From assembly GCF_030013205.1 (NCBI RefSeq), contig NZ_CP122648.1: a stretch of DNA of 64,000 bases; one strand, written 5' to 3'. The DNA comes from Escherichia coli (GTDB taxonomy: Bacteria; Pseudomonadota; Gammaproteobacteria; Enterobacterales; Enterobacteriaceae). Below the pieces are notes generated by a model. The model was not told the origin of the DNA and made no database searches. It saw only the letters and a program-made list of their open reading frames with translations. Below are positions 53,362 through 64,000 of the stretch, one piece after another (the stretch's first letter is position 1; every line of letters starts with the position of its first letter). The position numbers were made by a program, and so were the translations under genes.

Positions 53362-55401
53362 TCATCCCAGGAACCGTTGAGCACCAATTAGTTGCGCGAA
53401 GTAATCGGCACCAGCGTTCCGAACAATTTCCAACTTAACGTTCTGATCATTGTTTCCTGCTGCAGGGACAATCCCACGATTCATAGCCAGCGCCCGGATC
53501 ACATCTTCAACACTTACAGCTTTAGCGGCAGCACCATTTTCATGGTTAATAATGCCCTGAATTAGCTTTTTCATGACCTCAAAATTAGAACCATCGATTT
53601 TCTCCTTAACACCTAATCCGGTGTACTGAGAGAGATAGCTTTTATAGGACGATGTGTTATTTCCATCAGATGAAGGGGCATAAATATCAATAATCTGATC
53701 AATCGTATTTTTGCCGCGTTTCAGGTATAGCATTACCTGCCGATCTAAGGCGGCAATGCCTTCCAGCATCGTCGGGAAGCTGGCAAAACGGGCATTTGGC
53801 CCCGATTCCAGGGTAGCCCCTTTTTGTCCTGCGAAATTAAGATTTCCGGGATTGTTATTCCTGATCCCTCTGGATAAATATGCAGATCTGTTTACTTGAT
53901 TTGAAAATCCCTGCAATCCTCCAGGCCAGACCTTACCCGGATTGTTTTTTTGCCACTCCTGCACTTCGTTAAAATAATCAAAGTTGAAACGCCCCTCCAG
54001 CCCTTTCATTTCCTCACTGGTGGTAGGTGTGTCATTTGTAGGAATAGCCAATCCAGCTACTGTTCCGGCTGTAGCCCCAAGAAGACTTCCACCAACAACA
54101 CGGGCGGCAACTCCGGTCGTTGTGGCTGCCACAGCACCAACTCTCGATGGTCCAGCAAGTACTGCGGCCCCAAAAAGCCAGGGATGTTCAACCGCAAAAC
54201 CAACAAACCCGCTAAGTGCCTTAACAACCTTTGCAACGTTTTCGGCAAAATTGTTCAGGTCGTTATTAAAATCCGGGCCATTTACGTACTTACCAAGTTT
54301 ATCCAGCCCCGTTTCTACATCCGTCAGAATCCTTTTAAAGTTCTCACCATTCATGAAATTCAGGGCAGCATTCGTGGCACCATCAGACATTCTGATTAAA
54401 GCGTCTTCATTCCCCGCCATTGCTCCCTGAAATCCGCTGGTAAGCCGATCCCAGTTTTTTTCCAGGTTACTGGTAATATTCTGATATTTACTTGTATGTG
54501 CAGAGGTCAGTAACGAATCATTCTGCGCTGCACGTAACGAAAACTCTTTGTTGAGTTCAGGTATTTTGTCCTGATATTTGACTAACTGGTTAGTAAGACC
54601 AAAATTTACCCATCCAAGCCCCATTCCTCTGAAATTGCTCTGGGTAAGACCAGTTCCCTGATATTCCTTTGCCAGCGCTGCAACCTTTTTCAGGAATACA
54701 GGCAGGTTTTCAGTCGCGTTTTTATCAGGATTTAGCCCCAGATTAAGCAGGCCGACGCGGGCAGGATGCGATATATCATTTTGTGCTGCTGCCAGTGTAT
54801 TGAGCACATTGCCAACACCGGAAAAATAAGGCGAATAAGTGCTTTCTGCCGCCTTTAACTCTCCTGGCGTTGCCACCAGCTCATCTGCATTTTTCTGTTT
54901 CTCTACAACACTACGGGACATCATGCCAAAGCCAAACGGTCCGGCAACGCCCATAACCGAGAGTTTTGTTCCCCACGATACGGTTGTTTTAAACAGGTTG
55001 TTTAATCTTGAAGTGGTCGTCTGTAGTGTAGAATTGATCTGCTTGTAAGTTTTCAGCGTCTGTTGGGCATTTTTCCCCAGCCCGCTGAGATACTTATCAA
55101 ACATCGTTTCGCCGCGACCTTTATAGTTGCTTACGAACGAATCTGCTGTTTTTCCGCTGCCGACAAAGCGCCCTTTTTCGTCCCTCACTCTCCCGGATAC
55201 ATCCGGTCCTGTCCGACCAGATTTTGCCGCCACGGGTAAGCCTGCCCCCACGCTGCGCCCACTTTGCCCCGGTATTTTCATCGGCGTTCCGGCAGGGCCG
55301 ATCATCAGCCCGTTGCGATACTTTTCAAAAATTGCCTCAAGCCGTTTGAGGTGTTCTTCATTAACGTCCAGCGTCAGAACTGGCATCTGATTACCTGACA
55401 T
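53362..55401 (-). CDS. large Gly/Ala-rich protein, tape-measure-like (function uncertain)
   Basis: 679-aa ORF; hydrophobic Gly/Ala-rich segment (GFVGFAVEHPWLFGAAVLAGPSRVGAVAATTTGVAARVVGGSLLGATAGTVAGLAIP), helical N-terminal half, C-terminal NNNPGNLNF region; start codon overlaps the stop of the upstream frameshifted pair (TAATG). No NTPase motif found. Confidence 0.45.
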   Translation of the reverse strand: MSGNQMPVLTLDVNEEHLKRLEAIFEKYRNGLMIGPAGTPMKIPGQSGRSVGAGLPVAAKSGRTGPDVSGRVRDEKGRFVGSGKTADSFVSNYKGRGETMFDKYLSGLGKNAQQTLKTYKQINSTLQTTTSRLNNLFKTTVSWGTKLSVMGVAGPFGFGMMSRSVVEKQKNADELVATPGELKAAESTYSPYFSGVGNVLNTLAAAQNDISHPARVGLLNLGLNPDKNATENLPVFLKKVAALAKEYQGTGLTQSNFRGMGLGWVNFGLTNQLVKYQDKIPELNKEFSLRAAQNDSLLTSAHTSKYQNITSNLEKNWDRLTSGFQGAMAGNEDALIRMSDGATNAALNFMNGENFKRILTDVETGLDKLGKYVNGPDFNNDLNNFAENVAKVVKALSGFVGFAVEHPWLFGAAVLAGPSRVGAVAATTTGVAARVVGGSLLGATAGTVAGLAIPTNDTPTTSEEMKGLEGRFNFDYFNEVQEWQKNNPGKVWPGGLQGFSNQVNRSAYLSRGIRNNNPGNLNFAGQKGATLESGPNARFASFPTMLEGIAALDRQVMLYLKRGKNTIDQIIDIYAPSSDGNNTSSYKSYLSQYTGLGVKEKIDGSNFEVMKKLIQGIINHENGAAAKAVSVEDVIRALAMNRGIVPAAGNNDQNVKLEIVRNAGADYFAQLIGAQRFLG

Positions 55402-56083
55402 TACAATACTCCTGCGGGATTTTTGAATTTGAGCAGCTCACGAAACTGAGCTGCTGTTTTTACATTCAGACCGGAATCTGCACAGATGTCTCTGAATCCG
55501 GCTCCGGCTGAGTAGTCGAGGATGTCGCTGATGACGTGTTCGCCGTCGCGCCAGAACTGACGGCAGGCTTCAATGTCGGCAATGAATCGATCCATTCCGT
55601 AAGACTCAAGGACGAGCATTGAGTGCTCCATATTCCATTCACCGCATCCATAGTCCCCTTCGTCTGCTCCGGGGAATTTATCGACGAGACGCATGTAAAA
55701 AAAACAAGTTCACCCGCCACTTCGTCCAAATCAACGATTTCACGCTCCAGCGCCATATCGAGAGGGATTGTGTCGTAGCCTTTGCCCTCCACTGGATAAA
55801 CAAGGTTTGCCAGGCGAATAATTTCGTTTATGAGCGTATTACGTATGCCTTTCTCCCCATCCCATAAACCGGAGTCACGGGAGATTTTCTCCAGCATAAG
55901 GCAGGCAACGCGCGGACCCGCAACAACACCAAGACCTTCAGAAAAAATGGCAGAAAAGGTTTTACTCAGGATGAAGAAATGCTCTTTAAACACCTCTTTG
56001 CTGATCGGCGTGGCATGGAGCCAGCCATTACCCTTTTCAGTGCGCACAGGGATAATCAGATTTAAGTTTTTAGCAATTTTCAT
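55401..56083 (-). CDS. two overlapping same-strand ORFs joined by a probable programmed -1 frameshift (tail assembly chaperone G/GT-like)
   Basis: ORF A (56083 down to about 55466) reads ...DLDEVAGELVFF through a run of 8 T on the minus strand (8 A on plus at about 55696-55703); ORF B (about 55694..55401) is in the -1 frame and continues ...YMRLVDKFPGADEG. Upstream segment about 129 aa, downstream about 98 aa, directly 5' of the 679-aa gene. Confidence 0.4.
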
Positions 56084-56763
56084 GATTCACTCACTCTGTT
56101 TTTTTCCAGTTGATCCAGCCGCCCGGATATTTCTTCCAGTTTTTCCAGAGCTGGCTTGCAGGCCGCATCAATAACTTCACGGACCATTCCGGCGAGCTGT
56201 TCTTCTTCTGTCGGCGTTGTTACTTCCACACCTGATGGTTTCCCGCCCTTATCCCATACGCCCAACGGTACGAGCGCAACGTGATCGATAAGAAATGGCG
56301 TACCCTCAATGAAAAAATTGTCCTCGCCCATTACATCAGGAACTTCTGCCCCACCGGACGCACCACAAAACACAACCGACGGGCTGGTGGATACCTCCCC
56401 CCGTGCTTTCTGGATGTAATCGATGATTTCCTGCCCGTAAATCCGGCATACACCCCACACCTCGTCACCGCGAATATACGGCAACATGACGGTGCCAATA
56501 ATGCGCGACCGTTCGCCAACGTCTTCAATGGTTTTGCCTTCGGGATGGTCGATAATGACGGGTACTCCGGCGCAACGTTCCAGGAACTGCGGATTGAGAT
56601 AAGTTTGCGGTGAACGCCAGACAAATTCTTTTTCTTCGGCGCGGTAGGCCATGCCAGTCCCTGTAATACGCAGGTTAACCAGCCACATGTTGGAGAACTG
56701 ATAAGGCGACGGTAGCTGACCGTCCCGAATCTGCTTTGCCGCCTCAATTTCTGTTAAAAGCAT
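56080..56763 (-). CDS. phage-like hypothetical protein (227 aa)
   Basis: ORF MLLTEIEAAKQIRDGQLPSPYQFSNMWLVNLRITGTGMAYRAEEKEF; overlaps the start of the downstream gene by 4 nt (coupled operon). No family recognised with confidence; could be a tail-tube-type or protease-type protein. Confidence 0.5.
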   Translation of the reverse strand: MLLTEIEAAKQIRDGQLPSPYQFSNMWLVNLRITGTGMAYRAEEKEFVWRSPQTYLNPQFLERCAGVPVIIDHPEGKTIEDVGERSRIIGTVMLPYIRGDEVWGVCRIYGQEIIDYIQKARGEVSTSPSVVFCGASGGAEVPDVMGEDNFFIEGTPFLIDHVALVPLGVWDKGGKPSGVEVTTPTEEEQLAGMVREVIDAACKPALEKLEEISGRLDQLEKNRVSES

Positions 56764-56827
56764 AATGTCACCCGGTTATAATCAATAAGCCCCGCCAAAT
56801 CCGGCAGGGCTGAAATCAGCACGTTTT

Positions 56828-57415
56828 TCATGCCCCCGCGAGGCTTGCAACGTTAATTTTGACCAGGCGACGGGGAGGGATTTTGAAAGCACTAAGCCAG
56901 TTATTCGGATCCCCCTGATATTCAGTAATCCGGCGCCCGGCTTCATCCATCCTGACTTTTTTAGTCAAATAACCCGGCGTGTTTTCCACGGCCCACTGAG
57001 CACTTTCCTGAGCAGCCTTGTAAATCTGATCTTCCAGCACCGCCAGCGTTGCAGAATCTGAAACGGAACGAATATCCACATCACTGAATTTTTTAGCCAG
57101 CTTCTGTGCGCCAATTAATGCACGCTTGCGGTAATCCATCGACTTTTCACCAGCAAACGGGGCCGGAGCTCGACGGCCCATATTGCTGTATGCGGAATCC
57201 GCTTTGGCCTGGGCTTCTGCCAGTGAGGATTCATCTTCGACTGACGCGACGATGTTTTGATTAGCGTTATCCTCTTTTATGAAATCCTGTGCGGGGATCG
57301 CATTCAGAATTTCGATAATCTCCTGCGGAGTGCTGCCCTGCGACTCTGACAGAGCGTTAACCACCTCCATCAGTTTTAATCGCAAATCTTCTTTGCTTGC
57401 TGGCATTTTTACCAC
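56828..57415 (-). CDS. phage-like hypothetical protein (195 aa)
   Basis: ORF MVKMPASKEDLRLKLMEVVNALSESQGSTPQEIIEILNAIPAQDF; acidic/helical; first gene of the leftward operon after a promoter-like gap. Confidence 0.5.
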   Translation of the reverse strand: MVKMPASKEDLRLKLMEVVNALSESQGSTPQEIIEILNAIPAQDFIKEDNANQNIVASVEDESSLAEAQAKADSAYSNMGRRAPAPFAGEKSMDYRKRALIGAQKLAKKFSDVDIRSVSDSATLAVLEDQIYKAAQESAQWAVENTPGYLTKKVRMDEAGRRITEYQGDPNNWLSAFKIPPRRLVKINVASLAGA

Positions 57416-57445
57416 CTCTCTTTTTTCACCAAAAAATCACGACCA

Positions 57446-57643
57446 TCAGGCCGGACGTTCTACGGGATAAAGCGCCCGCTGCATTAAACGCCGGGCGACC
57501 TCATGAATGCTCGGAGCAATCCCCAGCGGAGAATTGCGGCGTTCCTCGTCCTGGATGCGCTGTAATGCTTCAATCTGATCACGAGCGAGTAAAACAGGTT
57601 TCACGCTGGCTTTTCTCATAGTCATATCTCCTGAACAAAACAA
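57446..57643 (-). CDS. small hypothetical protein (65 aa or shorter from an internal Met)
   Basis: ORF MFCSGDMTMRKASVKPVLLARDQIEALQRIQDEERRNSPLGIAPSIHEVARRLMQRALYPVERPA; possibly a small DNA-binding/antitoxin-like protein; no family recognised. Confidence 0.35.
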   Translation of the reverse strand: MFCSGDMTMRKASVKPVLLARDQIEALQRIQDEERRNSPLGIAPSIHEVARRLMQRALYPVERPA

Positions 57644-57749
57644 CGATTATGATTGCACAAACTGAAATGACGATCTACATCATTGCAATTTATGAAACAA
57701 TAACGCATGATGATCGCGTTCTTCCCATTGACTTCAATCACCTGAAAAA

Positions 57750-57785
57750 CAAAGCCCGCAACACTTCTGGCTGCGGGCTTTTTAC
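57750..57785 (-). terminator. intrinsic terminator downstream of the PerC-like gene
   Basis: Minus strand GCCCGCAGCCAGAAGTGTTGCGGGC hairpin followed by TTTGTTTTT. Confidence 0.5.
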
Positions 57786-57820
57786 TGGCACAAAAAAGCC
57801 GGGAAAAATCCCGGCCTCCG

Positions 57821-58108
57821 TCACTGACTGCAATTTTTCGATCCAGGGTATTTCCTGAATGCCTTACCATTGGGCTGATGTAATCCCATCCCGGCATGTG
57901 CCCGGCTGATGGTTTCGCGCATCTCCCCGAAATTATCCTGCCGTGCTGGTGGGCGTGCTGCCTTGCGGATACATTCCGCGCGACGTTTTGCCGCCTGTTC
58001 CCGTGCCTTGTCATCATTCGCCAGCATGATGACCTCAGCCCACCGCGCCGCCGCTCTCCGGTACAGACCACGCGCTTCCAGTGCTTCCGCTTTGCTGTCG
58101 TGAATCAT
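57821..58108 (-). CDS. PerC-family transcriptional activator-like protein
   Basis: 95-aa ORF MIHDSKAEALEARGLYRRAAARWAEVIMLANDDKAREQAAKRRAECIRKA; the KAExLExRGxYRRAAxRW pattern matches recalled PerC/Pch-type activators. Confidence 0.55.
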   Translation of the reverse strand: MIHDSKAEALEARGLYRRAAARWAEVIMLANDDKAREQAAKRRAECIRKAARPPARQDNFGEMRETISRAHAGMGLHQPNGKAFRKYPGSKNCSQ

Positions 58109-58647
58109 GCGCCTGTTTTCTCCTTTGCTACCCGGCGCTGACGTTTGCGCTTCTCATTCAGCGCCACCAGCCGCGTTTCTGCGTCCTGTTGTTCCTGTGG
58201 TGTCACCTCGCCGCACGGCTGGCCTTTCAGGTCGTAGCGTACCCCACCAGCCATTAAGGCGCGGTAATAGCGCGGACACTGTGCATAAGATGCCAGCGTC
58301 GCACGCAATGCCCCTGGACCGAATGCCAGCCCCCTGACGGCGAGATCCTGCATCAGGTCGTCGAATATCCCCACCTTAAGCGGCTTCGGTGCTTCCCGGC
58401 TGAATAATTCAGGCCACAACTCAGTGAGGCGGTTAATGCGCCTGCGGTTTTTGCGCTGGCGCTTGGTCATATGCCGCCACAGTGTCGCCCCTGTGGGCTT
58501 CTGCTGCGCTTTCTGGTTACCGGGCATCACTTTATGCGCCGATGTGGTTTTATCCTGCTCCTGCGCCGCCTGCGTCGTTTTCTGCGGCGTGCCGTAAATG
58601 CCTTTAGGTTTTCTGTTAATGGTCAGCTTAGTCATGCTTTGCCCCAT
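58105..58647 (-). CDS. ProQ/FinO-domain RNA-binding protein
   Basis: 180-aa ORF; basic N-terminus then LTELWPELFSREAPKPLKVGIFDDLMQDLA...GALRATLASYAQCPRYYRALMAGGVRYDLKGQPCGEVTPQEQQDAETRL, closely resembling the recalled ProQ N-terminal FinO domain. Confidence 0.7.
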   Translation of the reverse strand: MGQSMTKLTINRKPKGIYGTPQKTTQAAQEQDKTTSAHKVMPGNQKAQQKPTGATLWRHMTKRQRKNRRRINRLTELWPELFSREAPKPLKVGIFDDLMQDLAVRGLAFGPGALRATLASYAQCPRYYRALMAGGVRYDLKGQPCGEVTPQEQQDAETRLVALNEKRKRQRRVAKEKTGA

Positions 58648-58719
58648 CGTTTTTACTGATTGCTACGTTGCCCAACGGCACTGACACAACATTCTGTTTT
58701 CATTTTTAACATTCCTAAT

Positions 58720-59115
58720 TTTTTAATTCCTCACCTGCTGCACAGTGAAAATTTATGAAGTTAATAACAATATGATTTTAAATGTATTTTTAAGTACTCA
58801 CTTTTTAATCCTTATATATACGCAAAAGTGAGGTAAATAGTTAAGTTTTAGTTAATATCTTGCATGGTGTGTTTTTTAACCTACCTGTTATTTTTATTAC
58901 CTCATTTCTATTAACTCACCATTCCTCACTTTTGTTCCTCACTTTTTGTTATTCCCGTCCTGCTCCTCACCTGTTTTTCTTGTTGTTGTAATGTCTTGTT
59001 TTACAATATGTTTTTCATTCCTCACTTTTTGACCTATATACAGGTGAGAAAGTGAGGAGTGGCGTTGATTTTTTGTTAAATTACCCGCCATCCTCACTTT
59101 TGCTCCTCACTTTTT
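58720..59115. repeat. iteron array (TCCTCACTTTT and variants, direct and inverted), candidate replication origin
   Basis: At least 10 copies of CCTCAC(T/C)TTT: e.g. 58728, 58924, 58937, 58964, 59020, 59091, 59105 direct and 58826, 59044 inverted, within AT-rich DNA directly 3' of the helicase gene; the last copies overlap the helicase stop codon. Confidence 0.6.
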
Positions 59116-60529
59116 ACAGTGGGCGCACATAATCACCGTCAATAGCGATTACGCCGTCGCTTTCCAGCTTGTACAGCCAGCGCCGGAAGTTTTTCATTTC
59201 ATACCCCAGCTTTTTCATATCATCGCGGAGAAGGGCGATAGTGCACGCCTCCCCGTGTGCTGTTCGCGTTCTGATGCACTGCCATAGCGCAGCGTGATTT
59301 TCCGTCTTGTTCCCGGCCTCCTCGATGCGTTCCAGTTCAACAGGTGGGCGCGGCTTATCCACAACCACCAGCGACGTGATTAACTCCCCGTCAGTGTCGG
59401 TAAAAAGCTCCACCACGCGTAAATCATATGCAGCCTCTTTCAGTTCCTCCGCGTCCTTCATTTTGGTGCAGGAGATAACCAGGGCTTCACTGTCCGCACC
59501 TTCACGGCGAATACGGTATTCAGCGTCCAGAGATGCACGAAATGCACTGGAACCACGCGCCCCTTTTGTTTCATCCTTGCCGGAATGGTGAACCACCAGT
59601 ACCGTGGCCCCCGTGCGTCGTTTCAGTTCGTCACATCCACGGATAAACGCCCCCATATCCCGCGCGTCATTTTCATCATTACCGCCAAAGCAACGCGCCA
59701 GCGTATCCAGAATAATCATGCGTACCGGTTTACCCGTTTCCCGTTCAACCTGACGGGAAGCGATGACCATTTCATCAACATCAAGCGGGACCGCCGGAAA
59801 AATCGGGCGGTTTACCAGGTACAGATTTTTCACCCGTTCATCATTAACGATTTCCCATGCTTTGATACGACGAGGGACACCAATGCCACCTTCACCGACG
59901 ACATACATCACCGAACCATGCGCCACCCTGCGGCCTCCCCAGTGGCGACCCGTGGCAACATGACACGCCCAGGAACACGCGAGGAACGATTTATAGGAAC
60001 CGCTCGCGCCGTATGTGCTGCACAATGAATTAGCCGGAATCACGCCCTTAACGACATAATCAAGCTGTGTGTCGTACCCTGCAGATCCAATACTCATTGG
60101 TAGTGTGGTTTTTCGCTGGTCGTTTTTTTCTTCCTCTGGTATCTCTCCGGACAGTCTTTTCTGGCGCTCTCGTTCCAGATATTCGCGCCACTCCTCGCGT
60201 TTCTGGCTGTGCATTCCCTCGGGGTAATAATTCGCATCCCGTACACCTGCCGCCGCCAGCTTTTGCCCGATGGCGTTAATATTTGACGGCTTGATGTGGC
60301 CTGCCTTGTACAGCCGGACACAATAGCGACCATCGTCGATAATTTTCAGGTCTGCCAGTTCGTCAAGCTGGCTGTCTCCCAGCCATACAGGCGGCACGTT
60401 GTCGCCAGCAAGTCGCCCGTCCTGCTCCTGCCACTGTTTCGCGTGCGCCCAGGCATCACTACCCGCAAAAATAATGACTTCGGTCATTTTGTCGTGTGGC
60501 TGTTTTTTTAAGTTCGGTGCCAGTTTCAT
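59114..60529 (-). CDS. RepA/DnaB-like replicative helicase (RecA-fold ATPase)
   Basis: 471-aa ORF with P-loop GASGSYKS, Walker-B-like ILDTLARCFGG and LVVHHSGKDETKGARGSSAF, typical of phage/satellite helicase-type initiators; start overlaps the upstream gene stop. Confidence 0.75.
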   Translation of the reverse strand: MKLAPNLKKQPHDKMTEVIIFAGSDAWAHAKQWQEQDGRLAGDNVPPVWLGDSQLDELADLKIIDDGRYCVRLYKAGHIKPSNINAIGQKLAAAGVRDANYYPEGMHSQKREEWREYLERERQKRLSGEIPEEEKNDQRKTTLPMSIGSAGYDTQLDYVVKGVIPANSLCSTYGASGSYKSFLACSWACHVATGRHWGGRRVAHGSVMYVVGEGGIGVPRRIKAWEIVNDERVKNLYLVNRPIFPAVPLDVDEMVIASRQVERETGKPVRMIILDTLARCFGGNDENDARDMGAFIRGCDELKRRTGATVLVVHHSGKDETKGARGSSAFRASLDAEYRIRREGADSEALVISCTKMKDAEELKEAAYDLRVVELFTDTDGELITSLVVVDKPRPPVELERIEEAGNKTENHAALWQCIRTRTAHGEACTIALLRDDMKKLGYEMKNFRRWLYKLESDGVIAIDGDYVRPL

Positions 60530-60825
60530 TTTGTGCCCCTGAATGCGTTAATCATGTTTTTCATTTTCTGAATATTTGCCCGTGCCTTTGCGTTGCTGGT
60601 GGGCTGTTTGCATGGCGTGGCCTGTATCAGTGAAAAATCACGCCGGAACTGATAAACAGGCATCACGCAGTCATATTCGTACCCATCACGGCGGTAAGTA
60701 ACGCACCGTCCCGCCACGCTTTTAATCGTTACAGTGCCGCCGTATTTATCTTTGAAAATATCGCCGGGGCGGATTTCAGGCCGAGAGAGACCGCTGGCAG
60801 TAAAGCCAGAATTTTTCTTTTTCAT
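60526..60825 (-). CDS. hypothetical protein (99 aa)
   Basis: ORF MKKKNSGFTASGLSRPEIRPGDIFKDKYGGTVTIKSVAGRCVTYRRDGYEYDC; coupled (ATGA overlap) to the helicase gene. Confidence 0.5.
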   Translation of the reverse strand: MKKKNSGFTASGLSRPEIRPGDIFKDKYGGTVTIKSVAGRCVTYRRDGYEYDCVMPVYQFRRDFSLIQATPCKQPTSNAKARANIQKMKNMINAFRGTK

Positions 60826-60831
60826 GGTTTT

Positions 60832-61197
60832 TTACTCCTGCGTCTTGCTCTGAATTACCTGATAACCGCAATCGGTCAGCAATTCGATAAATTCCGGCAA
60901 TGTGCCGAAACAGCAATTATCACGCATACGTTCGCGGGATACCTCAACGCCGTTTTCGTAGTGACTCACCATGCGTCCGGTAAAATGCAGATCATCATCG
61001 TGATGGCACGTTGACGGCTTAATCAGTCGCGCACGTTCTGCCAGCTCCAGCAATGCTTCAACACTTCCGGCAATTGCACCATCCGGCAGGCGATAATTAC
61101 TTACCACGCGTCCATTCTCCACATTGACCAGTAGCTGCCCGGTAAATTTCTCATCAAACTGAATGCTGTTAAGGTCAGAAATTGACAGGTTATGCAT
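60832..61197 (-). CDS. hypothetical protein (121 aa)
   Basis: ORF MHNLSISDLNSIQFDEKFTGQLLVNVENGRVVSNYRLPDGAIAGSVEALLELAERA; same operon, overlaps the upstream gene by 8 nt. Confidence 0.5.
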   Translation of the reverse strand: MHNLSISDLNSIQFDEKFTGQLLVNVENGRVVSNYRLPDGAIAGSVEALLELAERARLIKPSTCHHDDDLHFTGRMVSHYENGVEVSRERMRDNCCFGTLPEFIELLTDCGYQVIQSKTQE

Positions 61198-61552
61198 GGT
61201 GCACCTCCTGGCGAATACGGGCGGCGAATACCATCACGCAGCCATCAGGAGATTGCTGGCGTGCTTCCTGTTCGCTGGTGGCCTCGATGTGAATCACGCG
61301 CGGTTGTGCCGTACTCAGGGCGATAAAACGCCAGATAAAATTGTTTTCGCATTTCTGAATAAACAGCGTGTTTTCTTCGCGCCCTTTCCATGTTGCCGAG
61401 ATATAGCCCATGCCATTGAGCATCTCGCAGGCATCAACCAGCGTATCAGCGGCTACGTGTACAGTGTTTTTACCGTCAGCTATGCAATCACGGTGCACCG
61501 CCAGGAAGGTGTATATAAATTTAGGGTGAGTTTGGGTATGCTGTGTTCCAGC
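61190..61552 (-). CDS. hypothetical protein (about 120 aa)
   Basis: Internal start of the long minus ORF: MAGTQHTQTHPKFIYTFLAVHRDCIADGKNTVHVAADTLVDACEMLNGMGY, preceded by GAGGT RBS; everything upstream in that frame looks like antisense junk. Confidence 0.45.
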   Translation of the reverse strand, partial: AGTQHTQTHPKFIYTFLAVHRDCIADGKNTVHVAADTLVDACEMLNGMGYISATWKGREENTLFIQKCENNFIWRFIALSTAQPRVIHIEATSEQEARQQSPDGCVMVFAARIRQEVHHA

Positions 61553-61754
61553 CATAATCGTTACCTCATTTAACGGTTTGGTTAGAAGCCCCGTTACTGC
61601 TCCAACAGTGCGGGGCTTCGTCGTTTCAATTGCTGAATTGCATGTATCAGCCCTTGTGGTATTCAGATTACATTTTGGTGAATACCATTTCAAGTCTTTT
61701 TTGGTATTCACTTTTGTATTACACTGCATCCCGTTATTAATCGGAGGTGCAAAC

Positions 61755-62060
61755 ATGTCCACGAGTTCTGTTAACAATAAGTCACAGCAACTGAATGCCA
61801 GATTTCCACATGAAGTAGTGAGTGGCATTGAGGCATCCCTACAGCCAGGGGAAACTAAAGCGAATTTTATAGTTACGGCTGTACGCGGTGAGATCGCCCG
61901 CCGCCAGGCAGAAGGAAGCGGAGAAAACCCCCTGGTTTCTTCGCTCGATGCGCTGGCGCAGGTGGAAAAAATCGGAGTCAAAGCTGCCGAGGAGATCGGG
62001 CAGCTCGTCACCGTCGCACGTGAAGAACTCCAGCGCCGCAAGGCCAAAGAATCAGAATAA
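61755..62060 (+). CDS. small DNA-binding-like protein (possible ribbon-helix-helix / YlcI-YnfO-like), the only convincing plus-strand gene in the element
   Basis: ATG 61755 preceded by GGAGG RBS; MSTSSVNNKSQQLNARFPHEVVSGIEASLQPGETKANFIVTAVRGEIARRQAEGSGENPL (101 aa); divergent from the flanking minus-strand genes. Confidence 0.5.
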   Translation: MSTSSVNNKSQQLNARFPHEVVSGIEASLQPGETKANFIVTAVRGEIARRQAEGSGENPLVSSLDALAQVEKIGVKAAEEIGQLVTVAREELQRRKAKESE

Positions 62061-62283
62061 TAACTATCATCGCCGTGGTGTGAGGAACTCCGGCGCATTG
62101 CTTTACAGGTACACAGAATGACCAACAAAGAATCAACCAAAACACCATCACCAACTCGTAAGAGACGACGCAAAAATATAGCGCATGAACATGAATCAGA
62201 AAGATTCGCACCTTGTTCGTTTGCTCTTGAGAAATTCCTTAAAGAGCACAGGAAAAAGCTCTCGTTGCAAACCTTGGAACGAA

Positions 62284-62692
62284 CCAAATCTGACTGATCA
62301 CATTGCCCACCAGCCGCAAATGTGGCATTGTTGGTGATGCGTTCAAGTATGTAGCTTTTCCACTGGCGGCTCTCTACGGTCGCCTTTGTTTTATCCAGAA
62401 CGAAATCAGACATCAGATTGATCAGCACCTGGCGACCTGACAAAATCGCATCAGTCGCGCCACCAGCAAAATTTTTTGCTTTCCGGACGGCGTGACCAAC
62501 GGCATTTTGCAGCAAAATATTCTGCATTTCTGGCGTGCTGTAGTAACGGTGATCAGCGCCTTCACTCTGTGCGACCACAACGCTATAATCTGCCTCGTAG
62601 ACAGTAAGCAATATGGCGCAGTAGGCTATTCGTTCACAAAGGCGCTCCGGCAACGGGGCGCTTTTTGTTATGTTCATCGCGTTACGCCTCAC
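62284..62692 (-). CDS. hypothetical protein; protein-like N-terminal about 135 codons of a 500-codon open frame (true 3' end unclear)
   Basis: MRRNAMNITKSAPLPERLCERIAYCAILLTVYEADYSVVVAQSEGADHRYYSTPEMQNILLQNAVGHAVRK is protein-like, but the frame has no stop until 61190 and runs antisense through the plus-strand gene with Ser/Cys-rich junk; possible lost stop, frameshift or sequencing error. Confidence 0.35.
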
Positions 62693-62696
62693 ACCA

Positions 62697-62903
62697 TTAC
62701 GCAGCCGTTCCGCGCGCTTCTTCCTCGCGTTCTTTCAGCCAGGCCAGCACCTCATCTTCATACCAGCCAACACGACGCAGACCGATTTTGAAGCCTTTCG
62801 GGAATTTTCCGGCGTTGATCATGTCCTGTAGCGAACTGTCTGCCTTGATGCGCAGAATATTTTTTACTTCCTGACGGGTAAGGATTTTTCTGATTGTTTC
62901 CAC
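62697..62903 (-). CDS. alpA: AlpA-family phage regulatory protein (excisionase-like HTH)
   Basis: 68-aa ORF METIRKILTRQEVKNILRIKADSSLQDMINAGKFPKGFKIGLRRVGWYEDEVLAWLKERE, the AlpA/Vis pattern. Confidence 0.8.
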   Translation of the reverse strand: METIRKILTRQEVKNILRIKADSSLQDMINAGKFPKGFKIGLRRVGWYEDEVLAWLKEREEEARGTAA

Positions 62904-62971
62904 TATGTTTTACCTCGTTAATCCGGCGTATTCCGGTGATAAATACGGTAAAACAGGGCAGGGCGGGAAAA

Positions 62972-63008
62972 ACAGTACCCACCGTTTTAAAACGGTACCC
63001 ACTGTTTT
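62972..63008. promoter_or_regulatory. candidate operator in the alpA upstream region
   Basis: ACAGTACCCACCGTTTTAAAACGGTACCCACTGTTTTTT: two direct GTACCCAC copies flanking the perfect palindrome CCGTTTTAAAACGG, about 70-100 bp upstream of the alpA start. Confidence 0.4.
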
Positions 63009-63039
63009 TTATCTCATTGATTACGCTTTTCTTTTTGCA

Positions 63040-63066
63040 AAAAAATAGCGACCGCAAAGGGCCGCT
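63040..63066 (-). terminator. intrinsic terminator after the 76-aa ORF
   Basis: Minus strand ATAGCGGCCCTTTGCGGTCGCTAT hairpin followed by TTTTTTT. Confidence 0.45.
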
Positions 63067-63073
63067 ATTGTGA

Positions 63074-63304
63074 TTACCGCTTCCACTTCTTAGGTCGTCC
63101 ACCGCATTTAAGGCTGGTGGGTCTCAGCACCTTGTCGATGCTTTCAGCCAGATTTTTCGATGCGCCACGCGAGCGCAAAAAACTGACTACCTCGTGTTTT
63201 GTGGGGGCTGTTGATTTGTCTTCCGGATCGTACGTTGACCAGAATTCACGATTTGCCATTAAGGCCAGTTGCAGGCCTTCGCCGTAGGCGGTGGTATTTT
63301 GCAT
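63074..63304 (-). CDS. hypothetical small protein (76 aa)
   Basis: ORF MQNTTAYGEGLQLALMANREFWSTYDPEDKSTAPTKHEVVSFLRSRGASKNL between int and alpA; no family recognised. Confidence 0.45.
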   Translation of the reverse strand: MQNTTAYGEGLQLALMANREFWSTYDPEDKSTAPTKHEVVSFLRSRGASKNLAESIDKVLRPTSLKCGGRPKKWKR

Positions 63305-63402
63305 AATAGAATTTTCATATACTCCGGCCTTGTCGTTAAATTTGTGGCAATTATACGATGGTTTGGCATGGTTTTCACTGGTTGCACTGGCTTTTTGTAC
63401 AG

Positions 63403-64000
63403 TTACACGGCACGGATACCCCTTTTACCACTGGCTATGGTCACTCCGGTAGCTGCGGCCTCTACAAATTCCCCCCACCAGCGCATAAGCACCACGCGCT
63501 TTTCCAGGTAGTTACTTCGGTTATATGCTCGCCTTACCTCGTTCGTGTCCACGTGTGCGAGTGCGGCCTCGATTACGTCCGGCTCGAATCCTTCCTCGTT
63601 CGCTGCTGTACTGAATATGGCGCGTAATCCGTGAGACACCAGCACACCAGCGTATCCCATCCGGCGCAATGCAGCGTTAGCGGTCTGGCTGCTCATTGGC
63701 AGCATTGGATTTTTAAGGCTGGGAAAAACATGTTCCCTGTGTGCGCTGATTGGCTTCATTGTTTCCAGTACAGCCATCGCCTGACCGCAAAGAGGGATCA
63801 CATGGTCACGGCGCATCTTCATGCGTCCGGCTGGAATCGTCCAGGTTTCGGCATCGAGATCTATTTCTTCCCAGCGTGCGGCGGCTGCTTCGGCTGGGCG
63901 TGCTACGGTCAGCAGTTGCCACTCAATCAGCAATCTGGTTTGCCGTTCTATGCTGGCGACCGATAAATCGTGCATTAGCTGCGGTAGCTGTTCCGGTCGG
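63403..64000 (-). CDS. int: tyrosine recombinase / P4-type integrase, C-terminal catalytic part (gene starts beyond right edge)
   Basis: Frame is open to the window edge; C-terminal sequence ...HDLSVASIERQTRLLIEWQLLTVARPAEAAAARWEEIDL...HVIPL...LVSHGLRAIFSTAANEEGF...RRAYNRSNYLEKR shows the R...HxxR...Y catalytic residues of tyrosine integrases. Confidence 0.85.
   Translation of the reverse strand, partial: RPEQLPQLMHDLSVASIERQTRLLIEWQLLTVARPAEAAAARWEEIDLDAETWTIPAGRMKMRRDHVIPLCGQAMAVLETMKPISAHREHVFPSLKNPMLPMSSQTANAALRRMGYAGVLVSHGLRAIFSTAANEEGFEPDVIEAALAHVDTNEVRRAYNRSNYLEKRVVLMRWWGEFVEAAATGVTIASGKRGIRAV

Follow-up and report, generated by a model that had tools for sequence, protein, structure and literature searches.

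The window analyzed here is a stretch of 64,000 nucleotides (nt) of Escherichia coli DNA (NCBI RefSeq assembly GCF_030013205.1, contig NZ_CP122648.1); it matches E. coli ETEC4079 at 1.81 Mb with 100% identity. On its minus strand, a gene for a 205-amino-acid (aa) protein, referred to here as the chaperone gene, is overlapped by a second reading frame and followed directly by a gene encoding a tape-measure-like protein. A reading made from the sequence alone (the sequence-only reading) had suggested a programmed -1 ribosomal frameshift on a run of eight T in the chaperone gene, in an arrangement like that of the tail assembly chaperone genes G and GT of phage lambda. The elements at this locus are the following:

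55466-56083, minus strand: frame-0 open reading frame (ORF) of the chaperone gene, 205 aa, ATG at 56083, reading ...GELVFF over GTT TTT TTT
55710-55712, minus strand: TGA closing the -1 frame, 6 nt 5' of the heptamer and 5 nt 5' of the T run
55697-55703, minus strand: slippery heptamer U_UUU_UUU in the correct X_XXY_YYZ phase, the frame-0 UUU UUU being preceded by the last U of GUU
55466-55696, minus strand: 76 frame-0 codons and the frame-0 stop, all also covered by the -1 frame (dual coding)
55401-55697, minus strand: -1 frame segment ('T' domain, YMRLVDK...NPAGVL), 98 codons plus TAA at 55401-55403
53362-55401, minus strand: gene for the tape-measure-like protein, 679 aa, with a peptidoglycan-hydrolase region at the C-terminus; the TAA of the -1 frame runs into its ATG

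The T run occupies positions 55697-55704 of the minus strand, one base away from the interval 55696-55703 given in the sequence-only reading, and the sequence across it is ...GGT GAA CTT GTT TTT TTT ACA TGC GTC.... From the run, the -1 frame continues as FF-YMRLVDKFPGADEG... for 98 codons, and the predicted fusion has 129 + 98 = 227 aa, with base 55697 read twice. Most of the anatomy described in that reading was recovered: two overlapping ORFs on the same strand, the downstream one in exactly the -1 frame, the GELVFF reading over the run, the in-phase heptamer, the length of the downstream segment and the position directly 5' of the 679-aa gene, where the TAA of the -1 frame and the ATG at 55399-55401 form TAATG. 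The length of about 129 aa given for the upstream segment applies only to the part shared by both products (residues 1-129). The upstream ORF stays open for 76 codons beyond the slip site, to a TGA at 55466-55468; its residues 130-170 finish the folded domain and residues 171-205 form a Ser/Thr-rich disordered tail.

The T run begins at index 379 of the chaperone ORF, and the -1 frame is open from index 374 onward. Because of the TGA at 55710-55712, the -1 frame can be entered only at or after the U run. The chaperone element is single-copy in the window. Runs of eight T are not rare as such (three in the window vs about six expected from shuffles), and the signal is the conservation of this run, not its mere presence.

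Conservation of the slippery site and of both frames

A scan of viral contigs yielded 71 loci with 65-100% identity over the first 129 residues. The T8 run, replaced once by T7C (U_UUU_UUC), was found with both frames open in 69 of them, with a frame-0 ORF of 205 aa (210 aa in one case) and a -1 ORF of about 100 codons; T9 occurred in only two of the 71. The nearest phages in GenBank, at 85-87% nucleotide identity, are Escherichia phage Rac-SA53 and a phage deposited as Actinobacillus phage pPE4, and in both the T8 run and the next 20 nt are identical to the window.

Codon by codon, we compared 52 unique colinear homologues. Third codon positions are invariant at only 4 of 126 sites of the N-domain, and codons 127-129 read xTT TTT TTT in 52/52, 52/52, and 51/52 homologues, with TTC, also a slippery codon, in the remaining one. 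In each of the four other conserved Phe columns, both TTT and TTC occur. Selection for the run thus acts at the nucleotide level. E. coli genes otherwise avoid U7 runs (PMC4066793), and the conservation of the run at the chaperone site runs counter to this general avoidance.

This conservation is deep. The distant set comprises six unfused relatives at 27-35% identity (measured on the alignment of the fused product) together with the isolated phages Klebsiella vB_Kpn_Chronis and Yersinia vB_YenM_21.09; DNA of distant relatives was obtained by exact-protein look-ups. All eight carry, in the same phase, NNT TTT TTT over the conserved FF motif, with frame-0 ORFs of 186-195 aa and -1 ORFs of 95-107 codons, which end close to the next gene, either no more than about 125 nt short of its called start or a few nt beyond it, where that start is on the contig. 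FF is preceded by V, I, S, or T, in every case with a codon ending in T (GTT, ATT, AGT, ACT). Exactly seven T are present in two of these relatives (AGT TTT TTT A and ACT TTT TTT A). The opening of the -1 frame usually precedes the heptamer by only 5-30 nt. Counting close and distant loci together, an in-phase T_TTT_TT[T/C] was present in 22 of the 22 loci examined, which span 27-100% identity and include the two isolated phages.

The chaperone protein belongs to a family of 607 clusters at 50% identity, as found by an exhaustive search of cluster representatives. Among the best 150 of the 607 representatives, 136 measure about 171-240 aa and keep a frame-0 tail of about 60-75 aa with the motif ..FF[TI]..S......LWG.Q.TS...TEF..SLPTST...TGE....SS[IV]P[SH], 12 are short or fragmentary, and two fuse the N-domain to a homologue of the -1 domain (P0177, 232 aa; P0182, 233 aa). 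The DNA of these two has T9, and the usual frame-0 tail is found in the +1 frame. The length of 205 aa is kept in nearly all relatives.

Variants in run length were recorded as well. One continuous ORF with T9 is present in the records L022, L074, L075 (P0177), and L076 (P0182); in L022, P0177, and P0182 it encodes 227-233 aa, consisting of the N-domain and the -1 domain. The joined 227-aa product was seen only in such rare T9 variants (e.g., P0177, P0182) and has no functional name in the inspected records. The island copy of strain RM9088 (L087, 12065-12681) has T7, which leads to a truncation at 139 aa, and is labelled a frameshifted pseudogene by the NCBI Prokaryotic Genome Annotation Pipeline (PGAP). 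The T9 and T7 variants may be sequencing errors, dead copies, or phase variants.

The sequence-only reading had offered a frameshift pseudogene or a homopolymer sequencing error as alternatives, in which case the true gene would be a single 227-aa ORF with T9. The few T9 records and the T7 island copy with its label 'frameshifted' are what this explanation can point to. The comparative data nevertheless contradict it and make it extremely improbable: T8 or the in-phase heptamer with two frames is the state of nearly all close loci, two frames exist in every unfused distant relative, and the supporting loci stem from independent assemblies, complete genomes, and isolated phages. The frame-0 tail, conserved in the 136 representatives and confidently folded, would not be preserved by a single-ORF gene. 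Homologues with one continuous ORF, which would have spoken for mutation or error, are not the rule.

Both frames encode protein, as seen from variability by codon position, protein conservation, and AlphaFold models. In the N-domain, the entropy of the frame-0 third position is 1.08 bits, compared with 0.29 and 0.20 in the other phases. Within the overlap, both frames show raised values at their third positions (0.48 for frame 0 and 0.50 for the -1 frame, with 0.29 for the remaining phase) and total variability is lower. Beyond the frame-0 stop, variability is confined to the third position of the -1 frame (0.78 bits vs 0.33 at the frame-0 third position and 0.25). Frame 0 is better conserved directly after the slip (TCVSSINKP.QAK..M..V.G.W), and the -1 frame farther downstream (FIADIE..RQFWRDGEHVIS.ILDY ... 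KTAAQLRELLKFK). For pairs below 50% N-domain identity, the mean BLOSUM62 score per residue was 0.53 in frame 0, 0.43 in frame -1, and 0.11 in the third frame, which contains one to six stops in every sequence. Pairwise identity did not discriminate as a test of dual coding (0.25 and 0.22 vs 0.23 in the control frame). The -1 domain can be aligned down to 27-35% identity, with Gly163 and Gly196 invariant, Tyr162, Phe197, and Arg215 nearly invariant, and Y130 nearly invariant as protein. True dual coding extends over 57-76 codons across the family (76 here, 57-63 in distant relatives).

The two products are also predicted to differ in their folded part, beyond a mere exchange of tails. For the 205-aa product, AlphaFold2 with a 70-sequence alignment gave a mean predicted local distance difference test score (pLDDT) of 90.5, with residues 11-170 at 95-98. 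A helix (119-135) spans the slip site uninterrupted and is followed by a helix (138-152), a short strand, and a helix (161-167); residues 171-205 are disordered. The model of the 227-aa fusion (21 sequences, mean pLDDT 83.9) has the same N-domain, a low-confidence linker at 141-147, and a helical domain at 152-203 with a pLDDT of 85-92.

The -1 ORF might instead be a gene of its own, translated as 97 aa from the ATG at 55694-55692, with the U run acting as a U-rich translational enhancer or without any role. All close relatives (65-100% identity) have this ATG, and gene callers have annotated such 97-aa ORFs, which make up phrog_14324. However, there is no Shine-Dalgarno sequence at a usable distance from this ATG. 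In distant relatives, the codon after the Tyr is GTG, GTT, CTT, TGT, or GGT, yet the domain is conserved, and some of them lack Met or another start for at least 30 codons of the -1 frame; the ATG of the close relatives is therefore not a conserved start. The near invariance of the preceding Tyr, the frozen synonymous sites of the VFF codons, and the occurrence of fused T9 forms argue against separate genes as well, which makes two independent genes very unlikely.

Probable frameshifting in a putative tail assembly chaperone gene

Rac-SA53 and pPE4 share the gene order sheath (phrog_205, E 2e-54), a 147-aa gene in the tube position, chaperone, tape-measure-like gene, and baseplate hub plus baseplate. 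Their tape-measure-like proteins measure 657-693 aa and contain a lytic transglycosylase region. The chaperone gene lies directly upstream of the tape-measure-like gene in Rac-SA53, pPE4, Chronis, vB_YenM_21.09, and the window. A frameshift is conserved at this gene position in long-tailed phages, according to Xu et al. 2004 as cited in PMC5009743 and PMC2628397.

The 679-aa protein is 88.6% identical to its pPE4 counterpart over the N-terminal 501 aa and 49% identical to that of Rac-SA53 over the N-terminal ~450 aa. A Pfam search with this protein gave no significant domain; we call it tape-measure-like for its position, its size, and PHROG matches to its C-terminal region. Its C-terminal ~180 codons (window 53362-53900) form a swappable cell-wall-hydrolase cassette: the N-terminal 501 aa are 88-91% identical to those of pPE4 and of the RM9088 island, and the three C-termini are mutually unrelated.

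Prophages of the Rac-SA53/pPE4 myovirus type with this chaperone were found in 82 of 5426 complete E. coli genomes, among them E. coli W, its derivatives LY180 and KO11FL, and two assemblies labelled DH5alpha. All four genes in the sheath-to-chaperone query region of these prophages are annotated as 'hypothetical protein', and so was every inspected record of the chaperone family. The best PHROG match of the frame-0 ORF is phrog_11810, of unknown function; no match to a named PHROG was obtained for the family.

With the site and both frames conserved, the core of the sequence-only reading stands, and programmed -1 ribosomal frameshifting on the U run of the chaperone gene is the probable explanation. 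The product would be the tail assembly chaperone of a lineage of Rac-SA53/pPE4-like phages with contractile tails; here, its gene is carried on a satellite-like island. Most ribosomes would continue in frame 0 and make the 205-aa protein. A minority would slip by -1 with two tRNA-Phe on the UUU UUU of the heptamer (55703-55697), where both tRNAs could re-pair perfectly with UUU in the -1 frame, the next codon being UAC (Tyr); a model of tandem slippage fits the heptamer exactly. The slipped ribosomes would read 98 codons of the -1 frame and produce the 227-aa fusion, in which residues 1-129 are unchanged and another, helical domain forms the C-terminus, terminating on the TAA that overlaps the tape-measure start codon. 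We infer that the shift is ribosomal, how efficient it is, and what the two products do: on the model of lambda G/GT, the N-domain common to both may coat the tape measure and the -1 domain may recruit the tube subunit.

Several results weigh against this explanation. Searches of Pfam, NCBIfam, and PDB (phmmer) with the chaperone protein gave no match, there was no convincing fold match to any known chaperone, and neither sequence nor fold homology was detected to lambda gpG, the Pfam Phage_TAC families, XkdN, or FluMu gp41. The name tail assembly chaperone is therefore positional and architectural only, drawn from gene position and frameshift architecture and not from homology. The heptamer U_UUU_UUU is a weak or modest shifter in E. 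coli compared with A_AAA_AAG (PMC5009743). A stimulatory hairpin or pseudoknot downstream, which the sequence-only reading had proposed to look for, did not emerge: the single-sequence fold of the window had a z of -0.23, RNAalifold on 17 sequences gave a consensus of -2.35 kcal/mol with almost no covariation, and an Rfam search returned nothing. Furthermore, the 8-base run is near the range where RNA polymerase can slip, and a little independent initiation may occur at the ATG that follows the run in the -1 frame of close relatives. The modest shifting by U_UUU_UUU would suit a low-ratio system of the G/GT kind.

Two candidate elements were dropped. A pseudoknot drawn by eye in the window (CGUCU/AGACG plus CCCC/GGGG) lacks its second stem in Rac-SA53, and a Shine-Dalgarno-like GGGUGA located 6-7 nt 5' of the heptamer in the window is not conserved in relatives.

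The fusion could also arise at the level of transcription, if RNA polymerase added a U on the A8 template and the resulting U9 mRNAs encoded the 227-aa protein in one frame. Eight identical bases are carried by most family members, the T9 and T7 DNA variants indicate that run length is unstable, and the missing ribosomal stimulator fits as well; the avoidance of U7/A7 in E. coli genes is thought to be partly due to such slippage (PMC4066793). However, the conserved unit is the in-phase heptamer and not the run length, and both the relatives with seven T and the T7C variant retain the arrangement. Runs of seven are not known to cause more than very little polymerase slippage in E. coli. Moreover, deletion of a U would also occur and yield a useless 139-aa product (LVFLHASRR followed by a stop). 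We consider transcriptional slippage unlikely, and programmed ribosomal frameshifting the better account of a heptamer kept in phase.

The satellite-like island

The chaperone/tape-measure pair is not located in a prophage. Its host element is a 13.2-kb island at tRNA-Pro, between yejM and yejO (window 51552-64000 and onward past the window end; L088, 2766-15949), which is bounded by 26-nt direct repeats 13,158 nt apart and has an integrase at its left end. Beyond the pair itself, the following features were assigned within the window (rac43 is a single 430-aa phage protein resembling a protease/scaffold):

51552-51577, minus strand: right-end direct repeat, 26 nt; the matching repeat falls outside the window (past position 64000), about 120 nt beyond tRNA-Pro
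52783-53310, minus strand: 175-aa ORF with an N-terminal helix-turn-helix (HTH), last sizeable gene of the late module
56080-56763, minus strand: DUF2213 protein, 227 aa, 54% identical to the N-terminal 226 aa of rac43
56828-57415, minus strand: 195-aa ORF (PGAP: 192 aa, 'NUDIX hydrolase'), whose residues 61-189 match rac43 295-423 at 64% identity
58795-59115, minus strand: seven iterons, AAAAAGTGAGGA-like, probable replication origin of the island
59114-60529: RepA-family helicase gene, adjoining the iterons

The gene order starts with the integrase, which runs off the window end, and continues with an HTH regulator, YlcI/YnfO, Icd-like, DUF4222, the RepA-family helicase, the seven iterons, ProQ/FinO, PerC, the 195-aa ORF, DUF2213, chaperone, tape measure, and the 175-aa HTH protein. 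Annotation together with PHROG and NCBIfam scans revealed no capsid, portal, large terminase, sheath, tube, baseplate, or lysis gene in the island. The window has no tube gene upstream of the chaperone because the pair sits in a satellite-like island and not in a prophage. The DUF2213 gene takes its place directly upstream, with a 4-nt ATGA overlap, and phage homology breaks at the chaperone ATG.

Both parts of rac43 are present in the island, split and in swapped order; by analogy with SaPI CpmB, they could form a device for the redirection of capsid size. The 175-aa ORF weakly resembles small terminase or excisionase proteins. Just 3' of it, on the minus strand at window 52549-52782, direct repeats are clustered (CGCGAAAAAGTGTCAA and AAAAGTGTCAAGTTG, in 3-4 copies and in part palindromic); the cluster recurs at the equivalent place in a second island copy and is a candidate packaging or regulatory site.

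This second copy is located in ETEC4079 at tRNA-Gly and has a different integrase and a primase. At that locus (L003, 10057-39073) the island copy stands in tandem with another element of about 14.7 kb, which contains a major capsid homologue, a 607-aa tape-measure-like gene (phrog_16051), a baseplate protein, IS3, and its own integrase. The 3' end of tRNA-Gly occurs three times in L003 (10057, partial at 24305, and 39051). An initial identification of the window with this tRNA-Gly island was rejected, as its attachment core is absent from the window, which represents the tRNA-Pro copy. Another version, in STEC005 at abgR/smrA, has yet another integrase and a DUF927 replicase with the same late module.

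A Rac-SA53/pPE4-like prophage is also present in at least 9 of 13 island-bearing complete genomes, compared with the 82 of 5426 overall; as many of these genomes are related porcine enterotoxigenic E. coli, the counts are not independent and the co-occurrence is suggestive only. ETEC4079 was not among the matches listed for this prophage. From its gene content, the island looks like a satellite of Rac-SA53/pPE4-like myoviruses that has its own chaperone and tape measure. More tentatively, it may represent an E. coli family of satellites of about 13-14 kb resembling phage-inducible chromosomal islands (PICIs), with several attachment sites, swappable integrases and replicases, and a late module of helper-derived chaperone, tape measure, and split protease/scaffold, whose own tape measure is installed in helper tails; we regard this as possible, somewhat short of an even chance. 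If true, such a satellite would not merely steal finished tails. By bringing in a tape measure whose C-terminal cell-wall-degrading cassette differs, it could change entry, escape exclusion, or sabotage the helper, and the recoding signal of the chaperone would be maintained under satellite and not phage selection.

Comparison with known systems

Programmed frameshifting in a tail assembly chaperone gene is a well-known phage class. A close example, lambda gpG/gpGT (Levin et al. 1993 and Xu et al. 2004, as reviewed in PMC5009743), likewise lies directly 5' of the tape-measure gene, and in the phage relatives of our system the gene also lies 3' of the tube-position gene, which is not the case in the window. 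In both systems, the two products have a common N-terminal part, the -1 frame lacks an initiation codon and closes near the tape-measure start, and the heptamer is of the X_XXY_YYZ type, here without an RNA stimulator found. No sequence or fold relationship is detectable, and the heptamer is U_UUU_UUU here but G_GGA_AAG in lambda. Lambda G stops just after the slip, whereas here the slip occurs about two-thirds along the gene, and the frame-0 product, which continues for dozens of codons in distant relatives as well, adds a conserved folded extension of about 40 residues plus the tail. The copy described here, moreover, is carried by a satellite-like island.

P2 (gpE/gpE+E') offers the myovirus counterpart of this device and, like our phage relatives, has a contractile tail. 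Its gene is flanked by those for tube and tape measure, its slippery run (T_TTT_TTG) is rich in T, and frame 0 of E stops only a few codons beyond the slip. The protein families are unrelated as far as tested. Frameshifting in P2-like phages is 2-3 times as efficient as in lambda (PMC5009743). E. coli dnaX (tau/gamma) offers a parallel outside phages, with an internal slip in one gene and a common N-terminal part followed by different C-termini. In dnaX, however, termination is almost immediate, and the A_AAA_AAG heptamer is accompanied by an upstream Shine-Dalgarno-like element and a downstream hairpin, whereas here a 98-residue domain follows and no stimulators were found.

What appears to be new, judged from sequence comparison, is an unannotated protein family, a mid-gene slip with two conserved C-terminal parts and a long dual-coding overlap, and the satellite-like host element. 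For annotation, this concerns a family of 607 clusters, labelled hypothetical in all inspected records, one run-length variant of which is called a pseudogene by PGAP. For recoding biology, it provides a clean natural U_UUU_UUU without detectable stimulator, kept over 27-100% protein identity, and a good test bed for the tuning of weak heptamers and for the constraint that dual coding places on evolution.

Among phage satellites (PICI, capsid-forming PICI, P4-like, and the EPIPs of Mycolicibacterium), the island finds parallels in its size of about 13 kb, the direct repeats next to a tRNA gene, its own integrase, small regulators, Icd-like and DUF4222 genes, a replication module of replicase and iterons, a short late module of helper morphogenesis homologues without complete virion or lysis genes, and the co-occurrence of a matching prophage. 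It differs from them in carrying a chaperone plus tape-measure pair. Tail genes are forbidden satellite markers in SatelliteFinder (PMC10085698), and this marker class is present in the island. According to a December 2025 preprint, tape-measure proteins are not known in satellites except for EPIPs and a proposed PLE11 case, and the preprint regards such an occurrence as notable. Finding a chaperone and a tape measure together on a satellite-like island goes against the working rule that tail genes are missing from satellites, and it suggests a new point at which a satellite may manipulate its helper.

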